In this document: one piece after another, positions 25,303 to 32,588 of the stretch
How the letters are laid out: each line of letters starts with the position of its first letter
Position numbering within the stretch: position 1 is the first letter of the stretch
Origin: a phage
Reading direction: 5' to 3' (one strand)
Length of the DNA stretch: 64,000 bases
Sequence record: PZ386969.1
Position numbers and translations under genes: made by a program
The notes under the pieces: model-generated
Databases searched by the model: none
What the model saw: only the letters and a program-made list of their open reading frames with translations
Told to the model about the DNA's origin: nothing

Positions 25303-25836
25303 TTAGAGAGACTTGTCTGAAATGGCCTGGAAGTAACGCAGGTCAACAGTGAACTGAGTATAAGAGTCCATTGCAGACATGTCCAGTTCCAGCTGACCGA
25401 GGTTCTGAGGCCAGGCGCCCTGAAGGGTCCAGGTCTTGGTGACATTGTCATTCGCATCCAGCAGTTCCATGATTACATCACGGAAATAATCATCTGGGTT
25501 AGCAGACGCACGGTTGTTGTTGCTGCCGTTGATGTACTGCTGCCAGACTTCGAATGCGTTGTACGGGGCGTTGTCCACAACGTTGATAAACGTTACAGGC
25601 AGAGCCTCAAAACGACGGTCACCTGGGAATGGAAGTTCACGACCACCCCATGGGACGAGTATCTCCCCGAGCTGGCCTGTTGGGGTATTTGTGGTCACCG
25701 CCAACAGCGAAACATCACGGATGGTATCGCTTCCAGCCACGAAGGAAGGGAAGTTAACAGTCACACGCCAACGGTGTTGGCGCTGAACGCCACCCCCGCG
25801 TGACATAGCTGCTCTGAATTCATTAACTGTAGCCAT
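25303..25836 (-). CDS. gp19: tail tube protein (gp19-like)
   Basis: 177 aa; position and C-terminal similarity to T4 gp19; late motif ACTAAATATTT and GAGGAGAA RBS. Confidence 0.75.
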   Translation of the reverse strand: MATVNEFRAAMSRGGGVQRQHRWRVTVNFPSFVAGSDTIRDVSLLAVTTNTPTGQLGEILVPWGGRELPFPGDRRFEALPVTFINVVDNAPYNAFEVWQQYINGSNNNRASANPDDYFRDVIMELLDANDNVTKTWTLQGAWPQNLGQLELDMSAMDSYTQFTVDLRYFQAISDKSL

Positions 25837-25860
25837 GGTCGTTCTCCTCTGAATAGTGTA

Positions 25861-25871
25861 AATATTTAGTT
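25861..25871 (-). promoter_or_regulatory. late promoter motif ACTAAATATTT upstream of tail tube gene
   Basis: Motif about 25 nt before ATG. Confidence 0.45.
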
Positions 25872-25917
25872 TTGAAATAAATGGGGGTTAAAATACTCCA
25901 AAGTGAGGATATTTATT

Positions 25918-27702
25918 ATGCCATTCCCCGATAAAAATTGTTTATGCTGCCACAAACCGTTCACCCCAACCAGGAAGGCTGCGTTGTATTGTAGTGACGA
26001 ATGTAAATCATTCATGCTGGGAACGATGAAACGTAATCCGGGTTTGTTGGATGACATCCCGACGACCGAAACCGAATGCCGCTCTTGGGTTGATAGTAAA
26101 CTCAGGAAGAAAGATGGTTCGTTGAACTACAAACTTATCTCTCATCCCCTACTCACGGCCCATACTGGGGTTGATGTTGTTGGATACGTGGTGTCACACA
26201 ACGACCTATTAGAAGAACCACAAGCGATAACTGCTTGGCTGTACGATATTCCGAAGTCGCAGTGTGCCACTTGCGGTGCTGACGTCGGCTTAGAAATGGA
26301 AGTCCAACCACCTAGATACAAAAAGTTTTGTTCCGAAGAATGCCAACGAGAATCAATGAAGGTGGGAGGCTCAGAACGGGCCAACCTAGAAAACGCCATA
26401 ACAGAGAAATATGGCGTAGCCAACATATTCCAACTGGAAGAAGTAAAACAAAAGTCACGGGAAACTGCCCTTAAGAAATATGGGGTCGACCACCCTATGA
26501 AGTCTGATGTTATAAAGGACAGAGTGGCTGCTTCCGTCATGGAACGCTATGGCGTATCACACGTCATGAAAATGCCAGAAGTGAGGGAAAGGGTGATTGA
26601 GACTTGGAGGAAGATCTATGGTGTGGATCATCCAATGTTCCTCAATTCCATTATAGAAAAGAGAAAGAAAACATGCGTCTTAAAATATGGGGTTGATTAT
26701 CCGTTGAAGGTAAAGGCTATATGGGATAGAAGCCAGGCCAATATCAGGATCATTTCAAAAGAAAAATACGGCGTACCTCACTATTTCTCTTCTGAAGAAT
26801 ATAGGAACTCTTTCACATACCCCAGCAGTCAAAGCCAAACACAGCCAGAAATAGAAATATGTTCATACCTGGATTCATTGGGCGTCGTTTATGAATCTGG
26901 TAATTTCTCCGTCCTCAGAGGTAAAATGTTCGACGGGAGGGCGACCACACGCCAGATAGACATATACTGCCCAGAACATAAGTTGGCAATAGAATTTAAT
27001 GGGTTGTATTGGCATTCGGAGAAACATCGATACAAAGACTACCATCTTGAAAAGACCATGCACTGTGAATCACAGGGTATTCAATTAATCCATATCTGGG
27101 AAGATGAGTGGCGTGACAAACAGGAAGTGGTTAAATCACTCCTTAAAGCAAAATTGGGGATAGGGAAACCATTGTCATACGCTCGCCAACATACCATTTT
27201 GGAAGGCTCCTATAGGACGTCCAAGGACTTTCTCGACCGATTCCATATACAAGGCGGTGTGGTGGCGACAGATTATATACACCTTGTAGACAAAACTGGG
27301 AATATCCAGGCGGTGATGTTGTTTACCAAACGAGTGCATGGTATTGAATTGGTGAGATTTGCTTCTAACAATTGCCATGGCGCATTCTCACGCTTGCTGA
27401 AATATTATATCGCTCGACATCGGGGTGAGACAGTATATTCTTTTGGTGATCGTTGTGTTGTCAGTCGTCTGAAAAATGTTTACCTGAATAACGGATTTGT
27501 TGAAAAGGAAATCCTTCCCCCTGATTACAAATATGTGACACCAGACTATAGCTTACGTATACACAAATTCAATTTCAGGAAAGAGAAATTCCTTAAACTT
27601 GGATATGATATAGAAGGTAAAACAGAGGATATGCTGTCGGTAGAAGCTGGGTTGGGGCGTATCTGGGGGTGTGGTCTCATCCGGTATGAACTGGAAAACT
27701 AA
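25918..27702 (+). CDS. free-standing nuclease, probable homing endonuclease (zinc ribbon + five KYGV repeats + PD-(D/E)xK Vsr/DUF559-like domain)
   Basis: Plus-strand ORF between minus-strand sheath and tube genes; RQIDIYCPEHKLAIEFNGLYWHSE...IWEDEW nuclease motif; start moved from GTG 25903 to ATG with GTGAGGA RBS. Confidence 0.7.
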   Translation: MPFPDKNCLCCHKPFTPTRKAALYCSDECKSFMLGTMKRNPGLLDDIPTTETECRSWVDSKLRKKDGSLNYKLISHPLLTAHTGVDVVGYVVSHNDLLEEPQAITAWLYDIPKSQCATCGADVGLEMEVQPPRYKKFCSEECQRESMKVGGSERANLENAITEKYGVANIFQLEEVKQKSRETALKKYGVDHPMKSDVIKDRVAASVMERYGVSHVMKMPEVRERVIETWRKIYGVDHPMFLNSIIEKRKKTCVLKYGVDYPLKVKAIWDRSQANIRIISKEKYGVPHYFSSEEYRNSFTYPSSQSQTQPEIEICSYLDSLGVVYESGNFSVLRGKMFDGRATTRQIDIYCPEHKLAIEFNGLYWHSEKHRYKDYHLEKTMHCESQGIQLIHIWEDEWRDKQEVVKSLLKAKLGIGKPLSYARQHTILEGSYRTSKDFLDRFHIQGGVVATDYIHLVDKTGNIQAVMLFTKRVHGIELVRFASNNCHGAFSRLLKYYIARHRGETVYSFGDRCVVSRLKNVYLNNGFVEKEILPPDYKYVTPDYSLRIHKFNFRKEKFLKLGYDIEGKTEDMLSVEAGLGRIWGCGLIRYELEN

Positions 27703-27728
27703 AACCCCGCCGAAGCGGGGTTTGTTTT
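27703..27728. terminator. bidirectional terminator between nuclease gene (+) and sheath gene (-)
   Basis: AACCCCGCCGAAGCGGGGTT with T-runs on both sides. Confidence 0.65.
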
Positions 27729-29622
27729 AAGAGGCTGCAACGATACCACCGCCGGATTCGATCTCACTGAATTCCATGTCTGGTCGAACGGAAGCAAAAT
27801 CCAAAAATATCCAATTTATTGAGTATTCCGGCTTGAGCCAAATGCCCGCGACCATGGTGTTGGCTGCGATAACTTCCGCAGTATTGTTGTCCTCATCACA
27901 CTTCACCATCCCGTCATAGATCGCGCCCATGTTGGCCAACTGGCGGATATATGGGCGGACAGCGTTGCTGAACAACCCACGAGTGAATGCATCGTTGTTC
28001 TCACCAAGGTAGTATTTGGCGATGGCTGCGATGTTTTGCTCTGCCATAATGAACAGACCACGAACGTTGATGCGGTCGAACGCAGATGGGCGGGTCAGGC
28101 CAGTCTTGTCGCCGTACAACACGATGCCTTCGTTGGAGAAGGTGACAATGCTGTTGATCTGGTTGCGATACAGCACAGCACGCTCATCAGAAGACGCAGA
28201 CCACGCCATTCGATTATAGTTGTTGTATTTACCACGGTTGTGGAACGCCGGAGATTTGTAGATACCCGCGATTTCAATGCTTCGCGCCCAAACACCTGCG
28301 GTGCCGCCACAAGCCGGAATCCAACGCATTTTGTCGTTGTACTTGTCGTACACATACGCCCAGTTGTCATCCATGAAGAAGTAGGAGGAGTCGCGAACAA
28401 GGCTTTCACGCCAGGCCACAACATCATCCATCTCACGACCACGGTTCCCGACGACCGCATCGCGAAGAGGAGACACGAAGGACACGGTGTCTTTACGCTC
28501 AGTGGACAGGTCGATCAGCGCCTGCTGCTCAATCAGTTCTTCACAGAAACCGAACACTGGCTTGGCATCATATGCTTCGGCGTTGTTCAGTGCCTGGATA
28601 GCCGCAACACGGTTCCCAGTGTAATCGTCTACACCACCTTCGAGTTCAATGACACCAGCAGCCAGGGTAGTGGCGAAGGTGTACACCCAATTTGAGGTGC
28701 CGTTGATCACGTCTTTGAAGTACGCATTGGATCCATCAGATTTCTTAGAACCCTGAGCGGTCTGCACCAGTTCATACTTCTCGATGATCGTACCGGAAGC
28801 ACCAACAGTGGTGACGGCAGCGGTAGCAGTCAGACCATTCGCGTCTGGAACAATCGCAGTCGCAGCCTGAGGACCGATTGCTTTGTGAGTGACGGTGACG
28901 GTGTTGGACTTCACAACAACAGAAGAATATACTTCAGACAGCTCCGTCAGCGCAGTTCCGATCTTGGTCGCCAGAGTCGCCGGGGTGTCAGCGTCAGTGT
29001 ACGCCACGGCTTTACCAGCAACAGAGATGGAACCAGCAGCGGTGGCAGTACCGGATACAGAGATACGATCAACCTGACTAACAGCGCCAGAAGAGTCGGT
29101 AATGCGCCCTACTTTGTCAACGATGGCGATATGGTACTCGCCATCCTGCGGAGCATATGCGAAGTTGTTACGGAATTCCCAGGTCGGGAACAGCGTAGCA
29201 TCACAGATGTTCACAGCAATGTCGTTACCCAGAGAGCCAGCATAGCGGCCTGTCCAGGTAATAGACGCAGATGGGGACGCGGTTTCGAAGTCTAGTTTGT
29301 TGCGGATAAGGATTGCAGTCTGACCTTTGGTTACAGCGTTGCGTGCCGCCGGACCGACCACACGGGTCACCCATGCAACAGAGCTGTAAGACAGGAAGTC
29401 AGCAATCACTAAGAAGTCGGTGGCAGTTGCATCGTTTGGCTTGAAGAATTTCTTCACCAGACCAGTTTCACCACCAGTGACCAACACAGGGAGTTCTGCC
29501 TCACCCCATTGGAATTTGCCGACAGTCGCACCCTGAACAACAACGGATGGAGACGTCTGAAGCGTGGCATCACGCTCAGTCCACTGTACGGACGGCGCAA
29601 CGCTGAAGCTTTGAGTTGCCAT
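27727..29622 (-). CDS. gp18: tail sheath protein (gp18-like)
   Basis: GKFQWG near N-terminus as in T4 gp18; 631 aa; late motif CTAAATATC about 35 nt upstream; start moved to ATG MATQSF. Confidence 0.9.
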   Translation of the reverse strand: MATQSFSVAPSVQWTERDATLQTSPSVVVQGATVGKFQWGEAELPVLVTGGETGLVKKFFKPNDATATDFLVIADFLSYSSVAWVTRVVGPAARNAVTKGQTAILIRNKLDFETASPSASITWTGRYAGSLGNDIAVNICDATLFPTWEFRNNFAYAPQDGEYHIAIVDKVGRITDSSGAVSQVDRISVSGTATAAGSISVAGKAVAYTDADTPATLATKIGTALTELSEVYSSVVVKSNTVTVTHKAIGPQAATAIVPDANGLTATAAVTTVGASGTIIEKYELVQTAQGSKKSDGSNAYFKDVINGTSNWVYTFATTLAAGVIELEGGVDDYTGNRVAAIQALNNAEAYDAKPVFGFCEELIEQQALIDLSTERKDTVSFVSPLRDAVVGNRGREMDDVVAWRESLVRDSSYFFMDDNWAYVYDKYNDKMRWIPACGGTAGVWARSIEIAGIYKSPAFHNRGKYNNYNRMAWSASSDERAVLYRNQINSIVTFSNEGIVLYGDKTGLTRPSAFDRINVRGLFIMAEQNIAAIAKYYLGENNDAFTRGLFSNAVRPYIRQLANMGAIYDGMVKCDEDNNTAEVIAANTMVAGIWLKPEYSINWIFLDFASVRPDMEFSEIESGGGIVAAS

Positions 29623-29674: not shown

Positions 29675-31885
29675 TCACCGTCTCAGCCATTCTTCCATAG
29701 ACATACCAGAGCGTTCATCATAAACCTGAATTCCACCGAACCCTGGGATGTTCTCCACAGAGTGAGGATCTGGCGTCGACATCATACCCCCAAATGGTAG
29801 CATCTGAGATTCTTCCATCGCAGACAACCGTCCTCTCATGTCGACTGAGATACTGGAGTTGGTGAGGTCACTAAACCATTCTTGTTTCACCGCCCATGCA
29901 TACAGCACAAGAGGCATTACACAGTCATCATGACAACCATCATCGGCTTCATACCTTGTTCCAGTCCATACGAATGTACTGAGTTCATCTATCGTGTCCT
30001 GGTCATCTATCACCAGCATTTCACGTTCAATCAGGGCTTTCAGGTTGGCACAGCCGTTTGTGCGCACCTTCTTGTTGGTATTGATACCAGGCTCAGGGCG
30101 GCGACCACCGATTCTCTTGCCTGTGCCCTTGGTATCTGTTGTAGTGAAGATGATCTCGGGATATTCAATTTCCTGGTATAGAATTGTGATCACCTGACCA
30201 CCCACGTCGTTGTTAGTCTCGACTAGCATCGGGCACGTTCCATACTTCTCGCCCATATCGGCGATTGTGTACGCGTACATCATTGGAGGTATCGTGTTAT
30301 TTCGATACTTGGCTGCGATCTTGTGAGGATAGTCTGTGATGTCGATAATGGTCAGCACAGAATAATCCCCTTCGACACCCTTGCCTGTATCTGCGATACC
30401 CATATAGATGCGCTTAGGATCGTAGTCGTGATAAATCTTGGTGAACTCGTTCGGCTCCTGATACAGCTTCGAGGTCATCTTGTCCAGACACTTGGCAGGT
30501 ATCAGTGATCCCACAGAACCACGGAACTTAATGCCAAATTCTTGATCGAAACGTGCATCACCCAGCTTCGCCCTTTGTTTGGATTCCCAGTCTGGATCTT
30601 TGGTGTACGTTGGAACACGATACCATGGGACCTCGGTGAGTTTGAAGTCGTTGTATTGTGGGTGTTCTGGGTTCGCCTTGGTGACGATGTCGTAGAACAA
30701 CCCGCGCTGACCTTTCGGCGTACTGGTCAGAATACAACGTGAAGTCTCTGCAGATGCAATCGCCGGGAATGTAGACTCCCAGAATTCAAAGTCGTTTTCA
30801 ATGAACGCCACTTCGTCCACATACAGGAGCGATACGGATCGACCACGGATGGAGTCGGAAGATGTCGCATAGGCGTAGATCTTTGATCCGTTTTCGAACT
30901 CGATCAGCGTGGAACCGAACTTCTCACAACCCTGTTGGAGGAAGAATGGCAAATCTTGATATGCTTTGCGAATACGATCTAGGATTTCAATCGCCTGCTT
31001 CTCTTTGTTCGCCAGTACTGCGATCTCTTTGTCGGAGTGGAACATCGCATACCAGAGCAGGAACGCTGCCACGACTGTCGTGTTGTGGCTGAGGAAGCCG
31101 TTGGTGTAGTAGCGCTGATCACTAGATTTCACCTGTAGGTCATACATGTGATGTGTCTCACCAGTCTGCCAAATCTCACGGATTTCTTCTGGACCTTCTG
31201 ACGTCATGATGTATGACCCAGAATTCAGGTCTTTGGCAAATATCTCCTTCATTTCCGGAGTGAAGAATATATGTTCGTCGGCCACGTTAATTCGCCGCCC
31301 AGTAACAGTCACAATAACGAATTCCGCATATTTCTTCGTCTTATGCGCTGCGATAACCGGAACCCAACCACTATCGGATTGCACAAAGTAACGTTTGCCG
31401 AAGCGGCTGTCCACGAACTTGTCATGGTTGCCAATGGTATTCAGCGGCACAGCGTGGTTGACGTCCTCGAAGCGGCTGTGAAGCTCCCCTATGGTCAGGA
31501 GCAACTGCTCTTGGCTGAGAGTATCGTAAACTGTGACAAGCGTGTCACCTTTTACACATTTCCCAGACTGACGAGCCTGGACGACCGCATTGAATCGATA
31601 GTCCTGGAAGTCATGGAACAACTGCTTCTGGTAATCGTGCATGTCAAAGAGGATGAAGCCTTTATCGATGGTCGTGATCTTGTAGTAGTTGGCGGCGAAG
31701 TAATGGGCGTCCATCGCGCACTCGACGAACTCCGATTCCTGCTCATCTGTTAGCATCAACTCCACACGAGGAGCGCGCACAGACGGCTTGCGCATGAACG
31801 TTTGGTCCATACGCAGTCTGACGTCTTCTGTCTTAAACCCCGTCTTGAGTGGGGCGTATTCTACATCACGCTTCTGATACGCCAT
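29675..31885 (-). CDS. terL: terminase large subunit (gp17-like) containing a mini-intein
   Basis: ARQSGK...TTVVAAFLLWYAMFHSDKEIAVLA matches T4 gp17 [30 protein letters not shown] once the insert is removed; C-terminal HDDCVMPLV; start at ATG with AAGGTG RBS. Confidence 0.9.
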   Translation of the reverse strand: MAYQKRDVEYAPLKTGFKTEDVRLRMDQTFMRKPSVRAPRVELMLTDEQESEFVECAMDAHYFAANYYKITTIDKGFILFDMHDYQKQLFHDFQDYRFNAVVQARQSGKCVKGDTLVTVYDTLSQEQLLLTIGELHSRFEDVNHAVPLNTIGNHDKFVDSRFGKRYFVQSDSGWVPVIAAHKTKKYAEFVIVTVTGRRINVADEHIFFTPEMKEIFAKDLNSGSYIMTSEGPEEIREIWQTGETHHMYDLQVKSSDQRYYTNGFLSHNTTVVAAFLLWYAMFHSDKEIAVLANKEKQAIEILDRIRKAYQDLPFFLQQGCEKFGSTLIEFENGSKIYAYATSSDSIRGRSVSLLYVDEVAFIENDFEFWESTFPAIASAETSRCILTSTPKGQRGLFYDIVTKANPEHPQYNDFKLTEVPWYRVPTYTKDPDWESKQRAKLGDARFDQEFGIKFRGSVGSLIPAKCLDKMTSKLYQEPNEFTKIYHDYDPKRIYMGIADTGKGVEGDYSVLTIIDITDYPHKIAAKYRNNTIPPMMYAYTIADMGEKYGTCPMLVETNNDVGGQVITILYQEIEYPEIIFTTTDTKGTGKRIGGRRPEPGINTNKKVRTNGCANLKALIEREMLVIDDQDTIDELSTFVWTGTRYEADDGCHDDCVMPLVLYAWAVKQEWFSDLTNSSISVDMRGRLSAMEESQMLPFGGMMSTPDPHSVENIPGFGGIQVYDERSGMSMEEWLRR
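31082..31558 (-). mobile_element. mini-intein (159 aa) in the TerL Walker A motif
   Basis: Insert begins CVKGDTLV right after SGK and ends SHN followed by Thr; no endonuclease domain. Confidence 0.8.
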
Positions 31886-32588
31886 TGTCTTCACCTTCTT
31901 CCTTCGGCTGCGGCTCGGCCTGAACGTCGATTACATCTTCTTCGGGATCAGGTCCTTTGGACGCAGCTTTCGCTGCAGCACGTTCTTCAGCACGTTTACG
32001 GGCGTCTTCGATGGTCTTCAGTAGATCACGGGAAGACCTGGCCTGTTTACCGACGTTGACCGTGGTTGTGCCATCAGGGGACGTGGTGACCTCGACGGTT
32101 GTTTCATCTCCAGGAGGTGGCTCTCTGTCGCCCGTGACTGCCTTGATAGTTTTCTGGTTCTCCATCAGGTCTTTGTTCAGACCGCGCATGAGTTCACCCA
32201 ACTCTTTAAAGACTGTGAAGGCACGGGGTGCTTCAGTCGTCGTCGCAAGTTTGGCTGCCTGTCCCATCATGAACATCGTGGCTTCCTGCATGGCATAAGT
32301 CGTGTCACGGATGCGTTTGTAGTCGGTGGTGGCATCAGTGTCTTCGAAGTCTGGAACCTTAGACTCCTTGGGCTTCAGCTCTTCTGGGTCCAATGAAGGA
32401 GGAAACACCACAGGCTCATACCCCGCAGACTCATACCCCGCAGGCTTTTCACCCAACCATTCACCTGTATCCGGATCGTAATCTTTTCCAGCCACAGGCG
32501 AGGTCTTCTCCATGACTTCTTGAGCGACCTCATCTCGCGCTTGGATAGCACTGAGGGTGGATAATAGGCGTTCTGACATAGCACTCAT
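31866..32588 (-). CDS. terS: terminase small subunit (gp16-like)
   Basis: Central region resembles T4 gp16; overlaps terL start by 20 nt; start moved from TTG to ATG with GGAG RBS. Confidence 0.6.
   Translation of the reverse strand: MSAMSERLLSTLSAIQARDEVAQEVMEKTSPVAGKDYDPDTGEWLGEKPAGYESAGYEPVVFPPSLDPEELKPKESKVPDFEDTDATTDYKRIRDTTYAMQEATMFMMGQAAKLATTTEAPRAFTVFKELGELMRGLNKDLMENQKTIKAVTGDREPPPGDETTVEVTTSPDGTTTVNVGKQARSSRDLLKTIEDARKRAEERAAAKAASKGPDPEEDVIDVQAEPQPKEEGEDNGVSEA

Follow-up and report, generated by a model that had tools for sequence, protein, structure and literature searches.

In a 64,000-nucleotide stretch of phage DNA (sequence record PZ386969.1, hereafter the window), the tail tube and tail sheath genes are separated by a gene that reads on the opposite strand, which raises the question of what this gene is and how it came to lie there. 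The window belongs to a ViI-like phage of the Ackermannviridae, Aglimvirinae, and the region shares ~97% identity with Escherichia phages PC3, PH4, A221, and ZQ1. The gene is probably a free-standing, mobile 'Hef-like' homing endonuclease gene (HEG) that encodes a Vsr-fold 'EDxHD' nuclease and is active or was so until recently. An earlier note on the same DNA had described a homing endonuclease invading the sheath/tube junction, and this description is supported by the presence or absence of the gene and the alternative occupants of the junction among relatives, by a degraded copy in phage LHE287, and by a co-conversion tract in the tube gene. As first stated the reading adds nothing new; an ortholog was named and placed in 2012. 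A more useful point is that one protein family has been treated under two names in two literatures.

The HEG is located on the plus strand at 25918–27702 and encodes 594 amino acids (aa) followed by a stop codon (TAA, 27700–27702), as determined from the open reading frame (ORF) list, PHROG 3339, and the F-LimVIII ortholog. Two starts are possible, GTG at 25903 and ATG at 25918. The ATG yields the 594-aa protein and is preceded 8 nucleotides (nt) upstream by a ribosome-binding site (RBS), GAGGA (25905–25909), which agrees with the plus-strand ORF of 594 aa with its own RBS that the earlier note had claimed. Coding sequences of equal or near-equal length (1785–1791 nt) are annotated at the same position in ZQ1, A221, and LIMEstone1, and the annotated coding sequence in the PC3 record begins later. 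The neighbouring genes were also placed correctly: the tail tube gene gp19 (25303–25836; Pfam Phage_T4_gp19, PHROG 45) and the tail sheath gene gp18 (from 27727 to 29622 or 29655; PHROG 23) are both late genes on the minus strand, and the HEG is antisense to both. The gene order is T4-like, with the portal gene past the tube gene and the terminase large subunit gene past the sheath gene. No paralogs of the HEG were found elsewhere in the 64-kb window, and the window has no HEG between the terminase subunits, the F-LimIX site in LIMEstone1.

The ortholog on record is F-LimVIII (ORF145) from Dickeya phage vB_DsoM_LIMEstone1 (LIMEstone1), which was reported by Adriaenssens et al. as a free-standing 'Hef-like' HEG on the opposite strand of the structural module (2012, PMC3296691). 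The window HEG is 90% identical to F-LimVIII in aa and 89.5% in nt sequence, and the window protein matches PHROG 3339 'homing endonuclease' over aa 28–593 with an E-value of 2.7e-191. The gene and its homing-endonuclease reading are therefore already known, both from the ortholog published in 2012 and from annotated relatives in GenBank. The copies in PC3, PH4, A221, and ZQ1 are 95–96% identical to the window protein (95.5% for PC3), and those from PC3, PH4, and ZQ1 carry the annotation 'homing endonuclease'. Copies in the Salmonella kutterviruses maane, Mutine, and KE31 are ~80% identical, and F-LimIII, VII, and X, the paralogs of F-LimVIII, share 41–47% aa identity with the window protein.

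More distant homologs connect the family to the Hef proteins of T-even phages. The Acj9 Hef-like protein aligns to the window protein over the repeats, the nuclease, and the C-terminal domain (E 5e-38), and its gene is located between nrdA and nrdB. This is the original hef site, at which hef replaces mobE in T-even phage U5 (PMC2988022), and Hef cleaves near its own locus according to secondary sources. U5 Hef and the Hef-like genes (Sandegren et al. 2005; Edgell et al. 2010, PMC2988022) are also free-standing between conserved phage genes, however, their locus is nrdA-nrdB and that of the window gene is sheath-tube. As a separate observation, the T4-like phage RPN226 (L015 2345-3856) encodes a homolog of 503 aa, annotated 'hypothetical protein', which is read from the opposite strand in the interval between gp24 (capsid vertex) and gp23 (major capsid). 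This is the same antisense-in-late-operon layout in an unrelated phage family.

The distribution of the gene was surveyed in 281 related records, in which some junction states were inferred from span length in a sampled survey. Such a comparison of relatives had been proposed in the earlier note, and the gene proves to be far from conserved in all of them: it is present at the junction in 26 of the 281 records, which fall into three separate lineages (17 Dickeya limestonevirus, 4 Escherichia Aglimvirinae, and 5 Salmonella kuttervirus records), and empty, GIY-YIG, and remnant states are found at the same junction. The Gloob junction is empty and consists of a 78-bp spacer, and a span of equal length was recorded for Ag3 and EspM4VN in the sampled survey. 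The SFP10 tube/sheath junction is occupied by a 152-aa GIY-YIG gene, and many kutterviruses and Klebsiella phages share its span length. A longer GIY-YIG gene of 232–237 aa is located at the junction in RPN242, CECAV050, AV101, fGh-Ecl02, and YX22, and two-gene insertions are inferred from spans of ~1230–1360 bp. LHE287 (L005 1338-1753) features an internally deleted HEG remnant, in which the sequence corresponding to window 25918–26128 is joined to that of 27589–27721. The remnant consists of the first ~210 bp and the last ~110 bp of the gene together with the terminator; ~1.46 kb is gone and no gene is annotated. The junction thus offers a clear natural case of endonuclease turnover and has five kinds of state, namely empty, two sizes of GIY-YIG gene, two-gene insertions, the Hef-like gene with or without small-ORF cassettes, and the decayed copy.

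The small-ORF cassettes are one or two minus-strand ORFs (118–120 aa and 100 aa) located between the HEG and the sheath gene in PC3 (L001 3229-3585), maane (L007 3210-3572), and ZQ1 (L008 3229-4020). Each small ORF is bounded by near-identical CCCCGCC-loop-GCGGGG hairpins. The window differs from PC3 and ZQ1 in that the 118-aa and 100-aa cassettes adjoining the HEG are both missing, as if deleted between hairpin repeats.

The tube gene carries a further sign of mobility at its 5' end, at 25700–25836 on the minus strand, where sequence identity switches in the last 100 nt. In these last 100 nt before the junction the window is 98–100% identical to maane and 96–100% identical to LIMEstone1. Over the same 100 nt, maane is 84% identical to its genus-mate SFP10, and LIMEstone1 is 78–82% identical to Gloob. 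Across the portal and distal tube gene, maane and SFP10 are 94–100% identical. The haplotype of the tube 5' end switches together with the HEG in maane and LIMEstone1 relative to SFP10 and Gloob. The ~100–150 bp of tube sequence travelling with the HEG is a co-conversion tract, as judged from these identity profiles, and this visible tract crosses the boundaries of genera and subfamilies. The 3' end of the sheath gene on the other side (27727–27900, minus strand) appears in the identity profile of relatives as a hypervariable mosaic tract. The last 170–200 nt of the sheath gene show 77–93% identity among phages that are otherwise mostly 97–99.5% identical in this gene, with 50 variable sites per 200 nt vs. 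~3–5 per 100 nt in most other bins, and the differences lie mostly at third codon positions.

The nuclease domain (aa 305–412; 26830–27153, plus strand) has a Vsr-like catalytic fold that is homologous to I-Bth0305I, the prototype of the EDxHD (Vsr-fold) enzymes (Taylor et al. 2011; PDB 3R3P). Hef-type phage enzymes were placed in the EDxHD family in the same study (PMC3239194). Alignment of the two proteins pairs E170, D196, N208, H213, and D222 of I-Bth0305I with E311, D348, N361, H366, and H376 of the window protein, and these five residues form the putative active site; the E, D, x (here N), and H positions match. In an alignment of 118 homologous sequences, H366 and H376 never vary and conservation is 90% or higher at E311, D348, and N361. 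All five are intact in PC3, ZQ1, A221, LIMEstone1, and maane. On the matter of catalytic residues, which the earlier note had left to alignment, four of the five positions are conserved and the fifth features an invariant His for Asp. A profile search, also proposed there, found the Vsr/DUF559-type domain that the note had named; the C-terminal position that it had assigned to the domain does not stand, as 180 conserved residues follow. I-Bth0305I is intron-encoded, has an N-terminal NUMOD/helix-turn-helix (HTH) region, and has nothing after the nuclease, whereas the window gene is free-standing and its nuclease is followed by a Mom-like domain.

The D-13-N-5-H spacing of the window nuclease is presumably equal to that of Vsr. 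A role of the protein as a Vsr-type mismatch repair endonuclease in phage DNA metabolism is nevertheless extremely unlikely, as the NCBIfam model TIGR00632 scores 17.9 bits vs. a cutoff of 97.85 and no Cys is present in the stretch after the WH, which we take to correspond to part of the Vsr zinc site. The patchy, mobile distribution described above and a multi-domain architecture unlike that of Vsr also argue against a repair enzyme.

An AlphaFold2 model of the protein, built on the 118 homologs, has a mean predicted local distance difference test score (pLDDT) of 91.9, and disorder in the model is confined to a linker at aa 298–304. The N-terminal half features zinc ribbons and repeats. The Cys-rich ribbon that the earlier note had placed at the N-terminus is present, however, there are two ribbons with a CxxC...CxxxC pattern and only the second is conserved family-wide. 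Zinc ribbon 1 (aa 6–31; 25933–26010, plus strand) consists of C8, C11, C25, and C29, is found in the close F-Lim clade only, and has weak matches to DUF2256/NinG-type zinc ribbons. A small helical region comes next. Zinc ribbon 1 is missing from the Acj9 and RPN226 homologs, so that the window protein has an extra ribbon and helical region relative to them. Zinc ribbon 2 (aa 114–149; 26257–26364, plus strand) is FCS/YacG-like, and its four cysteines (C116, C119, C138, and C142) are conserved across the family.

The second ribbon is followed by an array of six 23-aa helix-loop repeats around the motif (K/R)YGVxHP (aa 150–297; 26365–26808, plus strand), which a profile search of the repeats, as suggested in the earlier note, assigned to Pfam DUF7487. 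The note had counted five repeats of about 30 aa; the tyrosines at aa 165, 188, 211, 234, 257, and 284 instead mark six YGV repeats with a period of 23 aa. The window protein has no NUMOD match, its N-terminal half being made up of the zinc ribbons and DUF7487 repeats, and no papers mentioning DUF7487 were found. The array is basic, with an isoelectric point of 9.5, and is presumed to be a DNA-tracking or DNA-binding module by its charge, its position in the protein, and analogy to NUMOD. In a separate comparison, the DUF7487 region of maane (L007 ~2000-2330, corresponding to window 26516–26845) has 49% nt identity to the window and a synonymous divergence (dS) of 2.1. The rest of the maane HEG is 83–95% identical to the window, and the six repeats are retained. 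The pattern resembles an exchange of the presumed DNA-recognition module.

The C-terminal part of the protein was not mentioned in the earlier note. Following the nuclease, a domain of 180 aa (aa 413–594; 27154–27699, plus strand) has a GNAT fold of the Mom family, with R423, H443, Q445, R480, G488, S491, D511, Y522, and an HKFN motif conserved. Mom of phage Mu (PF25680; PDB 8BV8) is a stand-alone protein of 241 aa, whereas the window domain is fused. Pairwise profile alignment with hhalign places R480, S491, D511, and Y522 opposite R111, S124, D149, and Y159 of Mom. R512 matches Mom R151 only with a one-residue shift, F438 is paired with Mom W48 (a Mom dimer contact), and the HKFN motif is common to Mom and the window domain. 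In Mom, R111, S124, and R151 are essential, and D149 and Y159 are classed as important (2026 Mom paper, PMC13219725). In the 118 homologs the counterparts are nearly invariant: R480 is conserved in 118/118, S491 in 106/118, D511 in 113/118, and Y522 in 118/118. Pfam gave no match to the isolated window C-terminal domain even at an E-value of 10. The equivalent domains of homologs P0113, P0118, P0065, and P0091 exceed the gathering threshold of Pfam Mom (PF25680) with 32–41 vs. 27.1 bits, and the window domain aligns to that of P0113 with an E-value of 6e-25.

Fusions of Mom domains with restriction-fold nucleases were noted in jumbo phages by Iyer et al. (2021, PMC7824862), who counted five in PA5oct. 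The window C-terminal domain matches five places in PA5oct, and the match listed there carries the annotation 'putative homing endonuclease'. Both literatures therefore treat the same family, and the 'Hef-like homing endonuclease' and the 'Mom-REase fusion' are one and the same kind of protein. A modification-restriction role was predicted for the jumbo-phage fusions (Iyer et al. 2021, PMC7824862), and the window protein could likewise be a single-chain modification-plus-restriction weapon, instead of or besides a homing enzyme, in which the Mom-like domain would modify adenines in the phage's own genome and the nuclease would attack host or superinfecting-phage DNA that lacks the modification. 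The five PA5oct matches, the conservation of the counterparts of R111, S124, D149, and Y159, and the homologs above the Mom threshold are in favor of this proposal, which is nonetheless unlikely. A generally useful defence gene would not be expected to be restricted to 9% of relatives and to a site that GIY-YIG homing genes occupy in others, and neither a co-conversion tract across genera nor decay by internal deletion, as in LHE287, would be expected of it. The PADLOC match is to a 'homing endonuclease' model only, and the window protein itself falls under Pfam Mom detection. Additionally, Mom features an essential HTH-like insertion (~residues 175–209) that appears shortened in the window domain; the PDY-HKFN segment is ~10 residues long vs. 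~35 in Mom, although both the length and the shortening come from sequence alignment only.

A combination of the two functions is also possible, although doubtful. The Mom-type domain may be active, possibly as an aminoacyl-tRNA-dependent DNA adenine-modifying enzyme, and may mark the carrier genome or the cognate target so that the fused nuclease would cut unmarked rivals. Such a bifunctional protein would be a hybrid of a homing element and a restriction-modification system in one polypeptide, and it would account for the avoidance of self-cleavage by a free-standing endonuclease gene whose own target is left uninterrupted. Mom modifies DNA at the N6 position of adenine in a tRNA-dependent manner, whereas Hef-like proteins are not known to modify DNA. 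The chemistry of Mom was worked out in 2026, which makes DNA modification by Hef-like homing enzymes directly testable. The near invariance of the Mom-type residues in a family for which homing has been reported, and the DUF7487 repeat array, are the under-explored points of this protein.

Homing also has to be weighed against the possibility that the gene is a fixed and immobile relic, once invasive and now inactive and drifting. The synonymous divergence of the HEG is lower than that of its flanks and is mosaic. Between the window and maane, dS is 0.21–0.27 at the ends of the HEG vs. 0.67–1.03 in the tube and sheath genes, and between the window and LIMEstone1 it is 0.04 in the repeat region vs. 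0.57–0.81 in the flanks. The ratio of nonsynonymous to synonymous divergence (dN/dS) is 0.13–0.28 for the HEG overall, 0.10–0.28 in the nuclease and Mom-like domains, and 0.00–0.05 for the tube gene. By the overall values, the HEG is under purifying selection. A relic would be consistent with the decay seen in relatives (the LHE287 deletion), with a dN/dS above that of the tube gene that reaches 0.54–0.79 when very close relatives are compared over the N-terminal and repeat parts, and with the GNAT loop, which reads G-A-F in the window vs. the family consensus G-G-A. It is still very improbable, as the window and 5/5 orthologs checked retain an uninterrupted frame of 594 codons, the conserved nuclease, zinc, and Mom-like residues are all intact, and the low dN/dS overall and in the nuclease and Mom-like domains is not that of a drifting gene.

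The HEG is part of a cassette with its own expression signals. An 81-bp left arm (25837–25917) is located between the start codon of the tube gene and the start of the HEG and shares 95% identity with the sequence immediately upstream of F-LimVIII in LIMEstone1. It includes the tube RBS GAGGAG (25844–25849, minus strand), the HEG RBS (plus strand), and the palindrome TAAATATTTA (25859–25868), which carries the late-promoter-like sequence CTAAATAT (25862–25869, minus strand) facing the tube gene. The LIMEstone1 record annotates divergent late promoters at the position of the left arm. The sequence CTAAATAT occurs five times in the window (25862, 29664, 33922, 40473, and 52517) vs. 1.3 expected, always on the late-gene (minus) strand, and four of the copies are located 20–45 nt upstream of gene starts, including that of the sheath gene. 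It fits a T4-like late promoter consensus for the window phage and is a candidate for this role.

At the right end, the cassette features a bidirectional intrinsic-terminator-like hairpin, CCCCGC-CGAA-GCGGGG, in an element at 27701–27728 that was recognized from the sequence, a terminator scan, and its fold. The hairpin (27705–27720) consists of a stem (27705–27710/27715–27720) and a CGAA loop, with A and T runs on its flanks. It is common to the convergent HEG and sheath transcripts, and the element overlaps the sheath stop codon at 27727–27729. The bidirectional terminator that the earlier note had seen after the gene is borne out by a predicted fold of -17.6 kcal/mol on each strand (z -2.8 and -3.5) and by the LIMEstone1 record, which annotates the hairpin as a terminator. 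The cassette is thus self-contained in its recognizable signals, with a promoter motif and RBS for the tube gene supplied by the left arm and a bidirectional terminator at the right end. The insert separates the tube gene from the sheath promoter, and the promoter and RBS that it brings in would serve the tube gene, so that insertion would leave the expression of the tail genes unbroken.

The window HEG and F-LimVIII have the opposite-strand tube/sheath position, the left arm, and the terminator in common, however, the two junctions differ next to the tube gene. The window arm directly adjoins the ATG of the tube gene, whereas LIMEstone1 keeps ~210 bp of older spacer to the left of the arm, which consists of the native tube RBS region, ~107 bp, and a native hairpin, GCCCTCCGAAGAGGGC. 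The extra 210 bp in LIMEstone1 was considered as a GIY-YIG remnant, and this was dropped because similarity to the RPN242 junction is confined to its two ends and none is detectable for the middle 107 bp. A 5' untranslated region (UTR) hairpin that sequesters the RBS is reported for T4 mobE. The 5' UTR of the window HEG was searched for an RBS-sequestering hairpin, and its fold is no better than that of shuffled sequences (z 0.54).

The free-standing T4 HEGs known to us share the strand of their neighbouring genes, whereas the window HEG is antisense to the late operon and has its own promoter and terminator. The Seg and Mob endonucleases of T4 have the same lifestyle, as they are intergenic, rival endonuclease families occupy individual sites, and flanks are co-converted (PMC2988022). 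Their catalytic folds are GIY-YIG and HNH, which are unrelated to the Vsr-like fold of the window protein. A homing cycle for the window HEG can be proposed along the same lines. The HEG would be transcribed late from its own promoter, opposite to the tail genes, and the protein would bind a long DNA site via the zinc ribbon and the six DUF7487 repeats. The Vsr-like domain, which is probably dimeric as in I-Bth0305I, would then cut the DNA of a co-infecting relative without the HEG in or near the sheath/tube junction, and recombinational repair off the HEG-carrying genome would copy the whole cassette and some flanking tube sequence. In this cycle we infer cleavage, the target site, dimerisation, and DNA binding by the repeats.

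Several points weigh against homing as the full account of this gene. Cleavage by the window protein and by its F-Lim orthologs is putative, and the link to the experimentally tested U5 Hef consists of annotation chains and of the nrdA-nrdB locus shared via Acj9. A comparison of five HEG-bearing with five GIY-YIG-bearing close relatives revealed no fixed substitutions in either flank, and therefore no target or immunity site can be named. The fifth EDxHD position, which is D222 in I-Bth0305I and D97 in Vsr, is His376 and not Asp in 118/118 homologs. This invariant His makes the family an 'EDxHH' subfamily variant of the EDxHD motif. Additionally, the conserved Mom-like catalytic residues are not accounted for by a plain homing model.

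Some minor observations concern the sheath and terminase genes. The mechanical ORF of the sheath gene begins at TTG 29655 (642 aa), and relatives annotate genes of 1896 nt; the sequence MATQSFSV and a good RBS favor the ATG at 29622 (631 aa). Further pockets of diversity arise among relatives that are otherwise mostly 97–99% identical, with 19 and 17 variable sites per 100 nt in the middle of the sheath gene (window ~28927–29126) and 15 per 100 nt in the terminase gene (window ~29827–29926). The ORF of the terminase large subunit (29675–31894) features a 159-aa mini-intein-like insert (CVKGDTLV...FLSHN; window 31082–31558, minus strand) that interrupts the Walker A motif after GK and before T. 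The insert matches Pfam Intein_splicing with an E-value of 7.6e-7, although its score falls short of the cutoff of that model. Terminase genes of similar length are found in relatives, and a 'pretoxin HINT domain protein' is annotated in some of them.

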